Of a DNA stretch of 8,803 bases, positions 1 through 8,803 are shown one piece after another. The DNA is from a virus. Its lineage: Duplodnaviria; Heunggongvirae; Uroviricota; Caudoviricetes. Location of the stretch: IMG/VR virus record IMGVR_UViG_2687453449_000001, positions 1 through 8,803 of that record; one strand, written 5' to 3'. The notes under the pieces were generated by a model. It did not search any database, was not told where the DNA came from, and saw only the letters and a list, made by a program, of their open reading frames with translations. Within the stretch, counting starts at the first letter, position 1. Each line of letters starts with the position of its first letter. The translations under genes and the position numbers were made by a program.

Positions 1-900
1 TTAACGCAACAGTGGACAATCTGGTGGTAATCGACAACGCAACGCTGCCGGAAGTATTTCAATATGAAAATTTTGCCCACTCAACGGTTCGCCATCAAGA
101 TTAAAGGTGATGTCGTGTGGTGCCTGAATATCAAACCACGACGAAGCGCCTTCGATAATATTCGGGTTATCTTCGTCAGATTTTAAGGTTGATACGAGAG
201 CCGGAAGTATTTCATCGCCGGTAAAAATGCGCAGTTGCAGCAAGCCATCGTTAATTAACGCGTTCGGACACAATTGCTGACCGCCACCGGCCTGACGCCC
301 GTTACCAATACCAATGACCAGGGCGTCACCTTGCCAGTGAAAGTTTTCACCGCGGATTTCACAACGGTCCGGTTGCAGAGTATCCATGCGCATTAAGCCA
401 TGAATGATGTAAGAGACGCCACCCAGCGCGGCTTTTAATTTTTCCGGCGTTTCTGTGGTAATACGCGTCCCAAATCCGCCTGTCGCCATATTAATAAAAC
501 AGGTTTGTTTGTTGACCTGCGCCATATCTATCGCAATGGCGTTACCGGCAATTGCCAGTTTCAGCGCCTTATCCAGTGCCTCAGGAATCCCTACACTGGT
601 GGCAAAATCATTGGCGGTTCCTAATGGCAAAATTCCCAGCGCGGGTATGTCATCCCCCTCACACTGAATCAACGCCGTAGAAACTTCATTAATGGTGCCA
701 TCACCACCACCGGCAATCACCGTTGCGACGCCCAACTTCCGGGCCTCCTCTACATATCGTGCGGCATCGCCTTTCTCCCAGGTGACCCGCACATGGATCG
801 TCATTCCTTCCTCACGCAACAGCATAATTGCTTCGCGCAAGGGTAAATTGTCAGTACTTTTGCCATTAAGAATCAGTAAGCTGGCGGGAAATTCTGCCAT
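1..900 (-). CDS. yegS: Lipid kinase YegS (diacylglycerol-kinase-fold)
   Basis: Complete minus-strand ORF: ATG at 898-900, TAA at 1-3, 299 codons. Translation starts [15 protein letters not shown] and contains the GGDG motif; it matches my recollection of E. coli YegS (299 aa). The ORF-track entry 1..1068 is the same frame extended upstream of the real start. Confidence 0.92.
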
Positions 901-1781: not shown

Positions 1782-1808
1782 AAAAAATAAGCCCGTGTAA
1801 GGGAGATT
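1782..1808. repeat. attL core of P2-like prophage (identical to the 3' end of the cyaR sRNA terminator)
   Basis: AAAAAATAAGCCCGTGTAAGGGAGATT is seen at 1782-1808. Its reverse complement, AATCTCCCTTACACGGGCTTATTTTTT, is the 3' terminus of E. coli CyaR (RyeE) as I recall it, which is the known P2 attachment core. Sequence to the right diverges from cyaR and leads into int (phage arm); sequence to the left is host flank. Confidence 0.75.
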
Positions 1809-1887
1809 TAGGGTGTCATCCGTAGGGGCTTTCAACGGTACAATGCGGGTTTGAGCGGCATAAATGACCACTGAAAGCCCTTAAACG

Positions 1888-2901
1888 TTACTCTACTGTG
1901 GACACTGTGTGGACACTCTCGGCCTCAGTACCACCTCTCAGCGGATTAAGAGAAATGGCGTCCTGAAGGTACTCTGGAGCAAAATGAGCGTAAACCATAG
2001 TTTGCTCAATCCGCGTGTGACCTAGTATCCGTTGTAGCGTGATAATACTTCCTCCATTAATCATGAAATGAGTGGCAAAGCTGTGCCTTAGTGCATGTGT
2101 GGCTTGCCCCATTGGCAAATCCGGTTTTATTGCTTTCATTGTTCGTCTGAAGCGAGGGTAATCAGCATCAGGGAATAAAAAACCTCGTTTGTTATCCGCG
2201 ATCATTTTGGCAACAGCCTCTGAGATCGGGACGGTGCGTGGTTTGTTTGTTTTCGTTTTAACAAACGTGACGCGGTTATGAATGATATTTTCTGCTTTCA
2301 AACGAGCTGCTTCTCCCCAACGTGCTCCAGTACTCAGGCAAAGAATCGCAATCTTTTTGTTGTCGCCGTCAAGAGCTGCGAGCAGTAAGGCAATTTCTTC
2401 CTGCGTGAGATAGCCTGTGTCTGGTTTTTCCTCCTTAAGCCTTTTTGTCCCTCTGATAGGGTGCTCACCAAAGTATAACTCCGCTTCAATCAGGGCTGTA
2501 AACATGCCGCTAATACATGTTAAATCACGATTGATACTCGAAGGTTTAATACCCTGACTTCTTCGGGTGGCGCAGTATTGGCTGATAAGCGATTTCGTAA
2601 TTTGAAATGCGCATGGGTCATTCGTTATTTTTGTGAAGATTTCAATTTTTCCAAGATTAGATTTCCCATGCTCTTCGTGTTTACCCTTTAAATCCCACCA
2701 GATCTGTGTCAGCTCCGACAGACGTCGCTTGTCTGTTGGTTTTGATAGCCATTCTTTATTGTGGTGGTTGTACAACGTGTATTTCTCGAAAGCGACAGCT
2801 TCGCTTTTCTTATCAAACTTCCTACGGATGCGTTTTCCATTACGTCCAGTAGGGCGGATGTCCACTTCATATCGACCATCATCGAGTTTTTTGATTGCCA
2901 T
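1888..2901 (-). CDS. int: P2-type tyrosine integrase
   Basis: 337-codon minus-strand ORF: ATG at 2899-2901, TAA at 1888-1890, GGAGG 8 nt upstream. Tyrosine-recombinase signatures are present: TGARWGE (Arg box), HALRHSFAT (HxxR) and LGHTRIEQTMVYAH (catalytic Tyr). Length equals P2 Int (337 aa, from memory). Confidence 0.93.
   Translation of the reverse strand: MAIKKLDDGRYEVDIRPTGRNGKRIRRKFDKKSEAVAFEKYTLYNHHNKEWLSKPTDKRRLSELTQIWWDLKGKHEEHGKSNLGKIEIFTKITNDPCAFQITKSLISQYCATRRSQGIKPSSINRDLTCISGMFTALIEAELYFGEHPIRGTKRLKEEKPDTGYLTQEEIALLLAALDGDNKKIAILCLSTGARWGEAARLKAENIIHNRVTFVKTKTNKPRTVPISEAVAKMIADNKRGFLFPDADYPRFRRTMKAIKPDLPMGQATHALRHSFATHFMINGGSIITLQRILGHTRIEQTMVYAHFAPEYLQDAISLNPLRGGTEAESVHTVSTVE
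1897..1916. repeat. Tandem direct repeats TGTGGACAC x2 (candidate integrase arm-type binding sites)
   Basis: TGTGGACAC at 1897-1905 and 1908-1916, 11-bp period, overlapping the last codons of int. From memory, P2 Int arm sites have the consensus TGTGGACA. Not verified by search. Confidence 0.5.
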
Positions 2902-2954
2902 CAGAAAACCCTCCGAGTGGTGTGTTTTTTTGCGACTACTAATCGTTTTTTTCG

Positions 2955-2977
2955 TGGTGGCTGAAATTTAGCCACCA
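2955..2977. other. Hairpin (8-bp stem TGGTGGCT/AGCCACCA, 7-nt loop) in the C-int intergenic region
   Basis: Perfect inverted repeat seen in sequence, preceded on the plus strand by two T7 runs (2924-2930, 2946-2952). It is not followed by a U-tract on either strand, so it is not a canonical intrinsic terminator. Confidence 0.3.
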
Positions 2978-3016
2978 ATAGTAGGCACTTGTGATGAATA
3001 TATTCACGATGAATTG

Positions 3017-3316
3017 TTAACCAGTCTTTTGACCGGAGTGGGGCGACGTTGTTTCGTTTTGCCCAAAGTGTGCGAGAGCGGGCGCAATTTGCCCGGACTC
3101 AGGAGCGATCTGATTTGTCATGAACCATAAAGTGTATTTGGTGAATTGTGGGGTCTGCAGGATGTTCATCATGACATCTGTTGGAGGTGTTGAACGACCA
3201 CTTTCATAGTAACTCAGCGTGCCATACGGAACCCCTGTTAAATCAGCAAGTTGTTGTCTGCTCAAATACTCTGATTTTCGCATTAAGACTATCTTCTCGC
3301 TTATCGTGTTTGACAT
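3017..3316 (-). CDS. C: Immunity repressor C (helix-turn-helix)
   Basis: 99-codon minus-strand ORF: ATG at 3314-3316, TAA at 3017-3019. Helix-turn-helix-like segment LSRQQLADLTGVPYGTLSYYESG. Same length and position as P2 C (99 aa), upstream of and co-oriented with int. Confidence 0.9.
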   Translation of the reverse strand: MSNTISEKIVLMRKSEYLSRQQLADLTGVPYGTLSYYESGRSTPPTDVMMNILQTPQFTKYTLWFMTNQIAPESGQIAPALAHFGQNETTSPHSGQKTG

Positions 3317-3407
3317 GGTGTTTAGATCTCAATAGTATTTAGTTTAGATGTAGATTGTTTAGTGCTTGGATGTGGGCACTAAAAGGCATTATAAGGCATT
3401 AAACGCA
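3310..3407. promoter_or_regulatory. Lysis-lysogeny switch: face-to-face Pe (rightward) and Pc (leftward) promoters with C operators and cox boxes
   Basis: Seen: TTGACA at 3310-3315, a 17-bp spacer, then TAGTAT at 3333-3338 on the plus strand (candidate Pe). The 8-bp direct repeat GTTTAGAT at 3320-3327 and 3342-3349 (22 bp centre to centre) flanks that -10, as described for P2 operators O1/O2. TATAAT on the minus strand (plus coordinates 3388-3393) is the candidate Pc -10, embedded in three tandem 9-bp repeats TAAAAGGCA, TATAAGGCA, TTAAACGCA (3380-3407) that fit the P2 cox-box consensus TTAAA(G/C)NCA. Promoter and operator identities are by analogy with P2. Confidence 0.6.
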
Positions 3408-3430
3408 ATTCATGAGGGCTGGAGGACGAC

Positions 3431-3706
3431 ATGAGCAAGCAAGTAACACTCATGACTGATGCGATTCCTTATCAGGAGTTCGCAAAACTAATAGGAAAAT
3501 CGACAGGAGCGGTTCGTCGGATGATCGATAAAGGAAAGCTGCCTGTAATTGATATGACCGATCCACAATCAGCTTCAGGTCGTGCAGGTGAATATTGGGT
3601 ATATCTTCCGGCATGGAATAACGGACTAAAACTGGCTTATGAAAGCCGCCCTAAAGAGATTCGTGACGGCTGGTTGATGTGGTTAGGTCTTGGTGAACCA
3701 CGTTAA
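3431..3706 (+). CDS. cox: Cox (excision directionality factor and Pc repressor)
   Basis: 91-codon ORF: ATG at 3431, GGAGG 5 nt upstream, TAA at 3704-3706. Same length and position as P2 Cox. Small basic protein with a helix-turn-helix-like segment. Confidence 0.9.
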   Translation: MSKQVTLMTDAIPYQEFAKLIGKSTGAVRRMIDKGKLPVIDMTDPQSASGRAGEYWVYLPAWNNGLKLAYESRPKEIRDGWLMWLGLGEPR

Positions 3707-3716
3707 GGAGAACCGT

Positions 3717-3887
3717 ATGAATGAGCCTCGTTGTATTGCTCAGTTATTGCGTAACGAAAGCCCCAGGGCGATTGACTTCACCATCACCCACGGTAAGGGG
3801 CGTAAGGGAATCATTATCCGCACCAAAAAACAGAGTCCGTTAAAAAAGGTTCTGACCTTTCTGAAAAGCCGGAGGGTATGGAAATGA
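3717..3887 (+). CDS. Small early protein of unknown function (P2 orf78 position)
   Basis: ATG at 3717 with AAGGAG 7 nt upstream; 56 codons; its TGA (3885-3887) overlaps the B start as ATGA. The ORF-track start at 3690 is a TTG with no ribosome-binding site. Confidence 0.6.
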   Translation: MNEPRCIAQLLRNESPRAIDFTITHGKGRKGIIIRTKKQSPLKKVLTFLKSRRVWK

Positions 3888-4384
3888 CAGTGATGACGCT
3901 CAATCTCGTTGAAAAACAGCCAACAACTATGCGCCGGATAATTGGTAAGCATCTGGCCGTCCCTCGCTGGCAGGAGACATGCGATTATTATAATCAGATG
4001 ATGGAACGCGAACGGTTAACGGTTTGCTTCCATGCGCAGTTAAAACAACGTCACGCAACGATGCGTTTTGAAGAAATGAACGACGTCGAACGTGAACGGC
4101 TGGTTTGTGCAATTGATGAATTGCGTGGGGCATTCTCAAAACGCCGTCAGGTTGGCGCAAGTGAGTATGCATATATTAGTTTTTTAACAGTCAGTCAGCG
4201 TCGCACTTTATTTATGCATGCCGGATTGACTGAAAAAGAATTTAACCAGCCATACTGGCGAATTAATGAGGAATCATGTTACTGGCGTGATGCTTTATTC
4301 CGTGCATTACGTGAATTATTCAGTCTGTTTGAGTATGCGCCGACAATTCTGACGTCGGTAAAACCAGAGCAATATCTGCATTAA
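3884..4384 (+). CDS. B: Replication protein B (DnaB-helicase-associated early protein)
   Basis: ATG at 3884 lies 8 nt after GGAGG (3871-3875) and gives 166 codons, the length I recall for P2 B. The ATG at 3878 is only 2 nt from the Shine-Dalgarno sequence, so it is disfavoured. TAA at 4382-4384. Confidence 0.8.
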   Translation: MTVMTLNLVEKQPTTMRRIIGKHLAVPRWQETCDYYNQMMERERLTVCFHAQLKQRHATMRFEEMNDVERERLVCAIDELRGAFSKRRQVGASEYAYISFLTVSQRRTLFMHAGLTEKEFNQPYWRINEESCYWRDALFRALRELFSLFEYAPTILTSVKPEQYLH

Positions 4385-4447
4385 GTAATTAACCAGAGTT
4401 TTTAACGCACTTAATCGTGCGGGGCTTCTTTTTGCCTGGAGAAAGTC

Positions 4448-4672
4448 ATGCATACAGTTTCTGAAAATCAGTTCGGTAAATACGCATTACTACTGCAACA
4501 GGCCAGAACCGAAGCACAGGCCGACGCTGCGACGCGCTTTTCTTCTCATCTTGACGCCATGATTCGCCACATCACAAAGGCGGAGTTATCCCGCGTGGAG
4601 ATAGTCGAGCTGCTCAGTCAGGAGTCGGAAAAATTTCACAACATCGGATTGTCTCGCGGGGAGGTGCTTTGA
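4448..4672 (+). CDS. Hypothetical early protein (P2 orf80 position)
   Basis: 74 codons; ATG at 4448 with GGAGA 5 nt upstream; its TGA overlaps the next start (TGATG). No recognisable motif. Confidence 0.65.
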
Positions 4673-4974
4673 TGTCCTGTTCTCGTTCAGTTGTTTTACT
4701 GAACAATGCCTTAAAAATCGTCGTTATGAAAAATGGCGATTTGTCTCTTATTCAACTTGGTCTTGATAAAGAAAAACGCGAAATAACTGAATCTGTTATC
4801 GCGATTTATCAGAGTGAATTAAACCTCCTGTCTGATGTGGTCAATTTACTTGTTAAACGCGCTGTATTTCACAAGCAAATTTCCTCCGTGGATGAACTGA
4901 CAAAATTAACGACAGAAATCGCCAGCTATTGCGCTGATGAATTTAAGAAACTGAACGACAAAAGGAGCTGGTAA
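4672..4974 (+). CDS. Hypothetical early protein, compositionally foreign (AT-rich)
   Basis: ATG at 4672 with GGAGG 8 nt upstream; 100 codons; TAA at 4972-4974 overlaps the next start (TAATG). GC is ~35-38% by hand count, against ~48-60% in the flanking phage genes. No recognisable motif. Confidence 0.65.
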   Translation: MSCSRSVVLLNNALKIVVMKNGDLSLIQLGLDKEKREITESVIAIYQSELNLLSDVVNLLVKRAVFHKQISSVDELTKLTTEIASYCADEFKKLNDKRSW

Positions 4975-5198
4975 TGCCGGACAACGTGGATTTTATTCAG
5001 GAACAACAGGCTGAATTACTGGAGCGCCAGATTAACGCGGCAAGGGTAAAACATTGCGGTGCTTCTGCGCTGGTTTGCGAAGAGTGTGACGCGCCAATAC
5101 CTGCTGCCCGTCGTGCGGCTTATCCGTCAGCCACGCGTTGTGTTTCCTGTCAGTCAGTCTTTGAAGCAAAAAACAAACATTACCGGAGAATGGCATGA
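4974..5198 (+). CDS. TraR/DksA-family C4 zinc-finger protein
   Basis: 74 codons; ATG at 4974 with AAGGAG 6 nt upstream. Two CxxC pairs (VCEEC ... RCVSC) about 17 residues apart, typical of the zf-DksA/TraR family carried by many phages. Confidence 0.75.
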   Translation: MPDNVDFIQEQQAELLERQINAARVKHCGASALVCEECDAPIPAARRAAYPSATRCVSCQSVFEAKNKHYRRMA

Positions 5199-5470
5199 GC
5201 ATTCGTATTGAAATTGGCGAACGTTATGTCGTTACCAGTGACAGTTTTCAGTTTATTCTCCACGAGAAAAAGAGAGCGGAAAGTGGTAAAAACGCCGGTC
5301 AGGAGTGGCTGGCGGTGGTTGGTTATTACCCGAAATTAAGCCAGCTCGTTTCCGGCCTGATGCATCACGATATTCTGACCGGAAGCGCAAAGTCTTTTGC
5401 TGATTTAAACGCGCAGGTTGAGCAACTCAGCAGGCGTTGTTCAGAGGCTTTTGGCTCACATGGCCGTTAA
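5195..5470 (+). CDS. Hypothetical early protein (P2 orf83 position)
   Basis: 91 codons; ATG at 5195 overlaps the previous stop (ATGA), GGAG 6 nt upstream; TAA at 5468-5470 lies 11 nt inside the A coding sequence. Confidence 0.65.
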   Translation: MSIRIEIGERYVVTSDSFQFILHEKKRAESGKNAGQEWLAVVGYYPKLSQLVSGLMHHDILTGSAKSFADLNAQVEQLSRRCSEAFGSHGR

Positions 5471-7694
5471 AGCCTCCGGGCGTTTTGTCCCTCCGTCAGC
5501 ATTTGCCGCAGGCACCGGTAAGACGTTTACCGGTGCTTATGCATGGAACGCGCCACGCGAGGCTGTCGGGCGCGAAAGACCCCTTACACGTGACGAGATG
5601 CGTCAGGTGCAAGGTGTTTTATCCACGATTAACCGCCTGCCTTACTTTTTGCGCTCGCTGTTTACTTCACGCTATGACTACATCCGGCGCAATAAAAGCC
5701 CGGTGCACGGGTTTTATTTCCTCACATCCACTTTTCAGCGCCGTTTATGGCCGCGTATTGAGCGCGTGAATCAGCGCCATGAAATGAACACCGACGCGTC
5801 GTTGCTGTTTCTGGCAGAGCGTGACCATTATGCGCGTCTGCCGGGGATGAATGACAAGGAGCTGAAAAAGTTTGCTGCCCGTATCTCATCGCAGCTTTTC
5901 ATGATGTATGAGGAACTCTGCGATGCCTGGGTTGATGCACATGGCGAAAAAGAATTGCTGTTTACGGATGAGGCGCAGGCGCATCTGTATGGTCATGTTG
6001 CTGGCGCTGCACGTGCTTTCAATATTTCCCCGCTCTACTGGAAAAAATACCGTAAAGGACAGATGACCACGAGGCAGGCATATTCTGCCATTGCCCGCCT
6101 GTTTAACGATGAGTGGTGGACTCATCAGCTTAAAGGCCAGCGTATGCGCTGGCATGAGGCGTTACTGATTGCTGTCGGGGAGGTCAATAAAGACCGTTCT
6201 CCTTATGCCAGTAAACATGCCATTCGTGATGTGCGTGCACGCCGCCAGGCAAATCTGGAATTTCTTAAATCGTGTGACCTTGAAAACAGGGAAACCGGCG
6301 AGCGCATCGACCTTATCAGTAAGGTGATGGGCAGTATTTCTAATCCTGAAATTCGCCGGATGGAGCTGATGAACACCATTGCCGGTATTGAGCGTTACGC
6401 CGCCGCAGAGGGTGATGTGGGGATGTTTATCACGCTGACCGCGCCGTCAAAGTATCACCCGACACGTCAGGTCGGAAAAGGCGAAAGTAAAACCGTTCAG
6501 CTTAATCACGGCTGGAACGATGAGGCATTTAATCCAAAGGATGCGCAGCGTTATCTCTGCCGTATCTGGAGCCTGATGCGCACGGCATTCAAGGATAATG
6601 ATTTACAGGTCTACGGTTTGCGAGTCGTCGAGCCACACCACGACGGAACGCCGCACTGGCATATGATGCTTTTTTGTAATCCACGCCAGCGTAACCAGAT
6701 TATCGAAATCATACGTCGCTATGCGCTCAAAGAGGATGGCGACGAAAGAGGAGCCGCGCGAAACCGTTTTCAGGCAAAACATCTTAACCGGGGCGGTGCT
6801 GCGGGGTATATCGCGAAATACATCTCAAAAAACATCGATGGCTATGCACTGGATGGTCAGCTCGATAACGATACCGGCAGGCCGCTGAAAGATACTGCTG
6901 CGGCTGTTACCGCATGGGCGTCAACGTGGCGCATTCCGCAATTTAAAACGGTTGGTCTGCCGACAATGGGGGCTTACCGTGAACTACGCAAATTGCCTCG
7001 CGGCGTCAGCATTGCTGATGAGTTTGACGAGCGCGTCGAGGCTGCACGCGCCGCTGCAGACAGTGGTGATTTTGCGTTGTATATCAGCGCGCAGGGCGGG
7101 GCAAATGTCCCGCGCGATTGTCAGACTGTCAGGGTCGCCCGTAGCCCGTCGGATGACGTTAACGAGTACGAGGAAGAAGTCGAGAGAGTGGTCGGCATTT
7201 ACGCGCCGCATCTCGGCGCGCGTCATATTCATATCACCAGAACGACGGACTGGCGTATTGTGCCGAAAGTTCCGGTCGTTGAGCCTTTGACTTTAAAAAG
7301 CGGCATCGCCGCGCCTCGGAGTCCTGTCAATAACTGTGGAAAGCTCACCGGTGGTGATACTTCGTCACCGGCTCCCACGCCTTCTGAACACGCCGCAGCA
7401 GTGCTTAATCTGGTAGATGACGGTGTTATCGAATGGAATGACCAGGAGGTCGTGAGGGCGCTCAGAGGTGCATTAAAACACGGTCTGAGAAGACCAAACC
7501 GTCAGCAAAGAAACGGAAGCCCGTTAAAACCGCATGAAATAGCGCCATCGGCCAGACTGACTCGGTCGGAACGAATGCAAATTACCCGTATCCGCGTTGA
7601 CCTTGCTCAGAACGGTATCAGGCCACAGCGATGGGAGCTTGAGGCGCTGGCGCGTGGCGCGACCGTAAATTATGACGGGAAAAAATTCGCTTAA
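5460..7694 (+). CDS. A: Rolling-circle replication initiator A (HUH endonuclease)
   Basis: 744 codons from ATG 5460 to TAA 7692-7694. HUH motif PHWHMML at codons 398-404. Paired tyrosines in GYIAKYISK fall at codons 450 and 454 counting from this ATG, the same positions I recall for the P2 A catalytic tyrosines, which supports this start over the TTG at 5418 used by the ORF track. Confidence 0.9.
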   Translation: MAVKASGRFVPPSAFAAGTGKTFTGAYAWNAPREAVGRERPLTRDEMRQVQGVLSTINRLPYFLRSLFTSRYDYIRRNKSPVHGFYFLTSTFQRRLWPRIERVNQRHEMNTDASLLFLAERDHYARLPGMNDKELKKFAARISSQLFMMYEELCDAWVDAHGEKELLFTDEAQAHLYGHVAGAARAFNISPLYWKKYRKGQMTTRQAYSAIARLFNDEWWTHQLKGQRMRWHEALLIAVGEVNKDRSPYASKHAIRDVRARRQANLEFLKSCDLENRETGERIDLISKVMGSISNPEIRRMELMNTIAGIERYAAAEGDVGMFITLTAPSKYHPTRQVGKGESKTVQLNHGWNDEAFNPKDAQRYLCRIWSLMRTAFKDNDLQVYGLRVVEPHHDGTPHWHMMLFCNPRQRNQIIEIIRRYALKEDGDERGAARNRFQAKHLNRGGAAGYIAKYISKNIDGYALDGQLDNDTGRPLKDTAAAVTAWASTWRIPQFKTVGLPTMGAYRELRKLPRGVSIADEFDERVEAARAAADSGDFALYISAQGGANVPRDCQTVRVARSPSDDVNEYEEEVERVVGIYAPHLGARHIHITRTTDWRIVPKVPVVEPLTLKSGIAAPRSPVNNCGKLTGGDTSSPAPTPSEHAAAVLNLVDDGVIEWNDQEVVRALRGALKHGLRRPNRQQRNGSPLKPHEIAPSARLTRSERMQITRIRVDLAQNGIRPQRWELEALARGATVNYDGKKFA
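7311..7330 (+). other. Candidate ori / A-protein nick region inside the A coding sequence
   Basis: GCGCCTCGGAGTCCTGTCAA is seen at 7311-7330. From memory this matches the P2 origin nick region, which is known to lie within the 3' part of gene A. Recall-based; needs alignment to confirm. Confidence 0.4.
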
Positions 7695-7794
7695 CAACCG
7701 AATGCGCCCCCGCGCCAGGGCGGCACGCCGGTCAGTGAGGGTGAATCACCTGACACTGCACCGGCGTCCACCGCCCGACTTTTCAGAGGTAGTC

Positions 7795-8235
7795 ATGATG
7801 ACGCTGATTATTCCGCGAAAGGAGGCTCCTGTATCCGGTGAGGGTACGGTGGTCATCCCGCAACCGGCAGGCGACGAGCCGGTGATTAAAAACACGTTCT
7901 TTTTTCCCGATATCGACCCGAAGCGCGTCCGGGAACGTATGCGCCTTGAGCAGACCGTCGCCCCCGCCCGTCTGCGTGAGGCCATCAAGTCAGGCATGGC
8001 GGAGACGAATGCGGAGCTGTACGAGTACCGCGAACAGAAAATTGCCGCCGGTTTTACGCGTCTGGCGGACGTCCCGGCGGACGACATCGACGGTGAAAGC
8101 ATCAGGGTTTTTTACTACGAGCGCGCTGTGTGTGCGATGGCGACCGCGTCGCTTTATGAGCGTTATCGCGGCGTGGATGCCAGTGCGAAAACTGCTGTTT
8201 CTCAAAGCGGGGCAGGGGGTGACGGCCAGCGGTAA
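7795..8235 (+). pseudogene. L: Truncated head completion/stabilisation gene L fragment (L')
   Basis: ATG-ATG at 7795 with GAGG upstream. Translation MMTLIIPRKEAPVSGEGTVVIPQPAGDEPVIKNTFFFPDIDPKRVRERMRLEQTVAPARLREAIKSG... matches my recollection of P2-family gpL up to about ...YRGVDASAK (~8190). The last 14 codons (TAVSQSGAGGDGQR) are an out-of-frame read of D sequence. 146 codons against ~169 for intact L. Confidence 0.6.
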
Positions 8236-8803
8236 AAAAATCCCGCAGATTACCATCACCCGCAGCGACGGTGACCGTCATCATTTTGCGATTGCTGACC
8301 GTGGAGCCTATACCGGCGTAACGGCAAAGTGGTTACACACCAAAGACCCGAAACCACAAAAGCAGAAGGTAAAACTGAAACGCAAAAAGAAAGAAAAACA
8401 CCTGCGCGCACTGGAGCACCCGAAAGCAAAACCGGTCACGCAGAAGAAAGCGCCAAAAGTACCGGAAGCGCGCGAAGGTGAATACATGGCCGGTGAGGCT
8501 GACAACGTTTTTGCCCTGACTACGGTATATGCCACGAAAGCGCAGGCCATGCGCGCCGCTCAGGCGAAGTGGGATAAACTGCAACGGGGTGTGGCGGAGT
8601 TCTCCATCAGCCTGGCTACCGGTCGTGCAGATATTTACACGGAAACACCGGTTAAAGTGTCAGGCTTTAAGCGCGTCATAGACGAGCAGGACTGGACAAT
8701 CACTAAGGTGACACATTTTCTGAATAATAGCGGCTTCACGACGTCCTTGGAGCTTGAGGTCAGGCTTTCTGATGTGGAGTACGAAACAGAAGATGATGAG
8801 TGA
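8189..8803 (+). pseudogene. yegZ: C-terminal fragment of tail gene D (yegZ-like, D')
   Basis: Frame +2 reads LKAGQGVTASGKKIPQITITRSDGDRHHFAIADRGAYTGVTAKWLHTKDPKPQKQKVKLKRKKKEKHLRALEHPKAKP...RLSDVEYETEDDE with TGA at 8801-8803. This is the C-terminal ~200 residues of P2-family gpD as I recall it, and K-12 yegZ is annotated as such a fragment. There is no plausible start with a ribosome-binding site. The upstream 80 codons of ORF-track entry 7946..8803 are an out-of-frame read of L'. Confidence 0.8.

Follow-up and report, generated by a model that had tools for sequence, protein, structure and literature searches.

Two deletion junctions, probably genuine, in a defective P2-like prophage at the cyaR site of avian pathogenic Escherichia coli RS76

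A P2-type replication gene A that is followed closely by an L-like reading frame, which itself runs into sequence of gene D, raises the question of whether the DNA carries real deletion junctions, naturally short genes, or joins that were made during assembly. The window, by which we mean the whole stretch of 8,803 nucleotides analysed here, is an exact substring of the genome of E. coli APEC RS76 (CP013048.1; L004 4542-13344), an avian pathogenic strain from poultry with the serotype O7:HNT (PMC4732331). Our answer, which we hold with a probability of roughly 0.88, is that the joins are real: a defective (cryptic) P2-like prophage at the RS76 cyaR / yegR-yegQ site carries two internal deletion junctions.

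The prophage occupies the known cyaR (yegR-yegQ) attachment site. In the E. coli W genome paper 'cyaR RNA' is given as a P2 site, with 'ogr-D'' listed for K-12 and 'P2*B' for strain B (PMC3032704, Table 2). The P2 attP core begins at window position 1782, and the core is repeated as attR 7,424 bp downstream, beyond the window (L004 13746-13772), giving direct repeats at both ends of the element. The attR copy lies within the 3' end of cyaR; CyaR (RF00112) was located at L004 13749-13834 on the minus strand, with its 3' end overlapped by the att core. Past the end of the window RS76 continues with ogr, attR, cyaR and yegQ. The left part of the window contains the following features, of which yegS and yegR were assigned from the listing of open reading frames and reading of the sequence.

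1-900, minus strand: yegS
1305-1622: yegR, upstream of the P2-type gene set
1782-1808, plus strand: attL core, 27 bp, identical to the P2 attP core
1888-2901, minus strand: int, intact, encoding a 337-aa integrase, 98.8% nucleotide identity to P2 int
3017-3316, minus strand: C immunity repressor gene, intact, 99 aa, 99.7% nucleotide identity to P2 C
3431-5470, plus strand: early operon with cox, orf78, B, orf80, orf81, orf82 and orf83, all of P2 length and inside the gapless alignment
5460-7694, plus strand: A', replication endonuclease, 744 aa

Local BLAST aligned window positions 1782-7688 with positions 24356-30262 of P2 (NC_001895) at 97.6% identity over 5,907 nt with 0 gaps, and the identity of the single early genes to P2 ranged from 96.2 to 99.7%. 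The P2 gene order, together with this high nucleotide identity across int, C, cox, B and A, is that of a Peduovirus. The A' product corresponds to residues 1-744 of a 759-aa protein and carries no foreign residues; it lacks the C-terminal 15 aa in comparison with the 759-aa relatives and 17 aa in comparison with P2 A. A sequence-only reading of this DNA had counted 744 codons in A' and, with some doubt, given 761 aa for P2 A, and both figures were correct. The whole GPA domain is contained in A' (Pfam PF05840, profile positions 1-321 of 321), and the TAA with which the frame ends (7692-7694) is the old stop codon of gene M. The nick region of the replication origin (about 7318; 7288-7348), which lies inside A', is identical to P2 at 61 of 61 positions. 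These 61 nt are thus 100% identical to P2 as against only 96.9% for A overall.

To the right of A' lie an island of M/L sequence and a part of D, bounded by two junctions (J1 and J2):

7691-7693, plus strand: J1, microhomology TTA, A joined to the stop codon of M
7695-7794, plus strand: intergenic M-L spacer in its native form, equivalent to P2 5901-5999 apart from an additional C at 7706-7710
7795-8235, plus strand: L', a presumed pseudogene of 146 codons; gpL takes up codons 1-132 (to 8190), after which come 14 codons of D sequence out of frame and a stop
8187-8190, plus strand: J2, microhomology GAAA, L codon 132 joined out of frame to D codon ~184
8187-8803, plus strand: D', a presumed pseudogene for residues ~184-387 of the 387-aa gpD, ending at the D stop, which is the end of the window

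The sequence-only reading had postulated two deletion junctions, one from A to L' and one from L' to D' fused out of frame, and had advised alignment to P2 for finding the breakpoints and any microhomology. Both junctions were placed by alignment to P2 and to closer relatives, with TTA at J1 and GAAA at J2. For the alignment base by base, EcPF20 and 1409 were used for A, EC93 for M/L and DETEC-S565 for D.

At J1 the A gene is broken 15-17 codons before its end, so that the junction does lie within the A 3' end, as had been suspected. The two parents read TTCGCTTA/T in A and CAGTTA/ACAACC in M, the TTA being common to both. More precisely, the nearest A genes (E. coli EcPF20 and strain 1409) read AAAAAATTCGCTTA/TCC at this point and the M/L parent (EC93, P2) reads GCCAGTTA/ACAACC, and from these parental sequences J1 is a clean join with 3 bp of TTA. 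Filler DNA at J1, in the form of the GC at 7689-7690 that is unmatched in P2, was considered and dropped, since the EcPF20 and 1409 A genes read TTCGCTTAT and the two bases are therefore parental. Since the partner of A at J1 is the M stop codon, the 100 bases preceding L' are the native M-L spacer, and the earlier statement that the L-like frame starts 100 bp after the A stop holds (start at 7795, stop at 7694). The spacer has five C at 7706-7710 as against four in P2, EC93 and MIN14, and the extra C is the sole indel within the 500-nt M/L island. The deletion at J1 comprises about 9.2 kb (9,224 bp in P2 coordinates) and took away the A 3' end, orf91, the tin/old-type cargo, cos, Q, P, O, N and M.

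The two segments that meet at J2 were matched to P2 by local BLAST, window 7691-8190 to P2 5897-6395 with 97.8% identity and window 8184-8803 to P2 23335-23954 with 95.5% identity; the D segment (8184-8803) was 98.7% identical to fiAA91-ss and up to 99.8% identical to E. coli prophages. Homology to L stops at 8190 and perfect homology to D starts at 8187, in agreement with the switch from L to D that had been put at about 8190, and over 8184-8190 the L and D sequences match at 6 of 7 positions. The deletion here amounts to about 16.9 kb (16,942 bp in P2 coordinates), with loss of the L 3' end, X, the lysis genes, R, S and the D 5' half, and also of the baseplate, fibre, sheath, tube and tape-measure genes and U. 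What is left of the two genes covers their Pfam profiles only in part: L' matches positions 1-103 of 139 of GPL (PF05926), and D', which has no native start codon, positions 152-304 of 305 of GPD (PF05954). Full-length L homologues have 169 aa, and L' diverges from them past residue 132. We infer that L' and D' are non-functional pseudogene fragments. The D reading frame, which differs from the L frame, was said to run across the junction without a stop, and it indeed stays open from 7946 as far as the D stop at 8803. The open part at 7946-8186 was considered as a new start or fusion gene and rejected; it is the alternative frame of L, equally open in P2, and so gives no evidence for a new gene.

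The total missing DNA is 9,224 + 16,942 = about 26.2 kb in P2 coordinates, with the proviso that the cargo genes of the real parent may not be those of P2; this figure replaces the ~28 kb that had been estimated before. No homology to P2 30266-33593, 1-5896 or 6396-23337 was found in the window by BLAST against P2, the cos 19-mer was absent from the RS76 locus, and no genes were called between A' and ogr. The three segments that remain are each 95-99.8% identical to P2-family genes over 500-5900 nt, which is not a matter of chance. A complete P2-like prophage has structural genes, a switch region, an integrase and both attL and attR (PMC3448106); the RS76 element lacks the structural and lysis genes and the cos site of a complete, non-cryptic prophage. 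Since the retained pieces stand in the prophage order A, M/L, D, two deletions suffice. The sequence-only reading had allowed for at least two deletions or for one deletion plus a rearrangement; the former part stands, and the rearrangement is not needed.

Against the close relatives, J1 and J2 are both clean joins without filler, and no IS, att sequence, long repeat or extended homology was found within +-30 nt of either. Collinear parents and a few bp of microhomology, with no IS, att sequence or long repeat, are the marks of microhomology-mediated deletion. Two joins made at random would show microhomology of at least 3 bp and at least 4 bp with a probability of about 1e-3, a value obtained analytically as well as by simulating 200,000 random deletions in an intact prophage. 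The starting prophage would have been full-length, about 30-34 kb, and would have lost one block that began at A codon 744, took in cos and ended with the final sense codon of M, and another from L codon 132 to D codon ~183. Judged solely from the structure of the junctions, the deletions may have arisen by RecA-independent illegitimate recombination, either by replication slippage or by microhomology-mediated end joining, and could have been two successive events or one template-switching event.

A single complex event would be a template switch of the FoSTeS/MMBIR kind from A to the end of M, with about 500 nt copied before a further switch to D. The short microhomology is of similar size at J1 and J2, the two junctions flank a short retained island of 500 bp, and a search of 5,426 complete genomes and of the further collections gave none with only one junction, all of which such an event could explain. 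The missing intermediates are weak evidence, however, as just one strain is known to have the allele at all; moreover, two successive deletions are the simpler route to the same product, and other strains have single deletions at this site. We regard a single event as rather unlikely. Far less can be said for the view that there are no junctions at all, the 146-codon frame being an L homologue that is short by nature and the D-like frame a natural gene with an upstream start, which is the outcome that the sequence-only reading had itself named as fatal to its proposal. For 80 codons before 8187 the D frame has no stop, as this view would have it, but that stretch is the alternative L frame, open in P2 too. 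The L homologues have 169 aa, and their identity to L' ends abruptly after residue 132; D' spans only profile positions 152-304 of 305, that is, residues ~184-387 of 387; and about 1,500 E. coli genomes hold a full-length L and about 2,100 this part of D. There is practically no chance that this view is correct.

The remaining alternative is an assembly artefact, in which the RS76 prophage would be full-length or otherwise deleted and the joins would come from contig ordering against BL21(DE3) and gap closure. The reads of RS76 were short (Illumina 150-bp paired-end and 100-bp mate-pair) and were assembled with SPAdes, and the contigs were ordered with Mauve against BL21(DE3), with gap closure by PCR and Sanger sequencing that left two gaps (PMC4732331). 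BL21 and REL606 hold a different defective P2 at the same site, P2-like prophages are known as hard to assemble (PMC3032704), and both junctions are unique to the RS76 record. On the other hand, De Bruijn assemblers need k-mer overlaps, so that reads must span each junction, and there are 0 Ns in the 22-kb RS76 locus. Blunt abutment of contigs would give microhomology of at least 3 and at least 4 bp with a probability of only about 1e-3, and here two non-homologous microhomology joins lie within 500 bp. Moreover, the BL21/REL606 remnant lacks L, so that ordering guided by this reference would not have put an L piece there, and independent deletions of the same kind are found at this site in other genomes finished with long reads. 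We consider an artefact very unlikely.

The sequence-only reading had also proposed a comparison with other E. coli genomes carrying this locus, and this comparison turned up other deletion alleles at the same site, and J1 and J2 were both missing from the 5,426 complete genomes of E. coli. The att core, insertion site and gene order of RS76 are those of P2 (NC_001895) and of Peduovirus prophages found in E. coli, which show 95-99% nucleotide identity to RS76 in each retained segment; unlike P2, RS76 lacks ~26 kb, from the A 3' end through the D 5' half, and is not a viable phage. Full-length prophages with a collinear gene order exist at the same site, for example in MIN14 (O7:H4), which also shares the O7 serogroup with RS76; its phage segments are about 97-98% identical to those of RS76, and it serves as a structural proxy only. 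The K-12 remnant 'ogr-D'' (yegZ-ogrK, cryptic prophage PR-X) lies at the same site next to cyaR and shares with RS76 the right end, namely the D 3' end, ogr and attR. One of its breakpoints lies on the attL side, at about window 1799, and the other in D, at the position equivalent to window 8589, and the joined ends overlap by 5 nt, so that K-12 lost everything between the attL core and D, whereas RS76 keeps the early region, the 500-bp M/L island and 620 nt of D.

In E. coli B (REL606, BL21), P2*B at the same site has an intact early region from int to A and, through an internal deletion, a fusion of truncated late genes (PMC3032704). There the fusion is Q'-S', with most tail genes kept and a cargo defence cluster after A, whereas RS76 has A joined to the M stop and L'-D', and the tail genes are absent. 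In REL606 the cargo position after A is taken by an ABC-three-component-system / AAA ATPase cluster (L003 21838-25529); this position is that of orf91, tin and old in P2 and is deleted in RS76. PK8276 also has the right end at the same site (D, ogr, attR), with a single deletion and a 6-nt overlap; int' is joined to U'-D, leaving 144 nt of int and a full-length D, and the early region is absent. As the breakpoints of K-12, REL606 and PK8276 are not shared with RS76, these remnants, which are already known from the literature, decayed independently. The site thus has four or more deletion alleles of separate origin (RS76, K-12, B and PK8276), and all of them keep the D 3' end, ogr and attR. The overlap of the cyaR 3' end with the att core may constrain how far rightward deletions can reach. 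The cyaR attachment site is a known hotspot at which P2-type prophages have decayed repeatedly.

The RS76 allele was seen in one short-read assembly only. When a query spanning both junctions was run against the 5,426 complete E. coli genomes, the best place covered the D piece only (44%), and neither the JGI metagenomes nor the species representatives of GTDB contained the exact 22- and 25-mers of J1 and J2. The 744-aa A' occurs as an exact sequence in one contig only, and the L'-D' fusion product (starts 7795 and 7672) was not on record in an exact look-up; this product is uncalled or treated as a pseudogene. Full-length L in the context M-L-X, which is seen directly in EC93, occurs in the ~1,500 genomes mentioned, and the fetched examples of the ~2,100 with this part of D are annotated with a full-length D. 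An exact intact parent was not found, the closest relatives being 98.3-99.8% identical per segment and the nearest intact early regions 98.3%. For this reason, what the parents read at the breakpoints is deduced from relatives.

With the lysis genes, the structural genes and cos gone, the element would be unable to lyse the cell, to assemble particles or to be packaged. Still present are both att sites and the genes for the C repressor, Int, Cox, B, Ogr and an almost complete A with its ori; for this reason P2-type immunity is probably still conferred and the element may still be able to excise, so far as gene content can tell. One might go further and see in the remnant a selected, domesticated module and not passive debris, as the deletions strip exactly the killing and packaging functions and spare the repressor, Int/Cox, Ogr and an A with ori that would be competent for replication. 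If that were true, the host would retain immunity of the P2 type to superinfection, and perhaps also a non-lytic element, able to excise and to replicate itself, that could interfere with incoming P2 or P4 phages, and the recurrent retention of D'-ogr-attR (K-12, B, PK8276, RS76) would reflect selection and not only protection of cyaR. We think domestication improbable. Two genuine deletions in the RS76 prophage are ordinary prophage decay and one more independent deletion allele at a known hotspot.

Beyond annotation the finding matters little. The element is best labelled as a defective P2-like prophage that cannot produce phage, with L' (7795-8235) and D' (8187-8803) marked as fragments of pseudogenes and A' as truncated at its C-terminus. 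The RS76 allele could be a small data point for work on how prophages decay and on microhomology-mediated deletion. A minor observation concerns the records of relatives. At least two 'complete' E. coli records, those of MIN14 (NZ_CP069646.1) and EcPF20 (NZ_CP071441.1), have the start of the prophage A gene as base 1, presumably because start-fixing software picks this replication endonuclease gene, and in many other records the prophage D is found near 26-32 kb, consistent with the same rotation. Rotation at A splits the prophage across the two ends of the record and hides it from BLAST summaries that report a single place.
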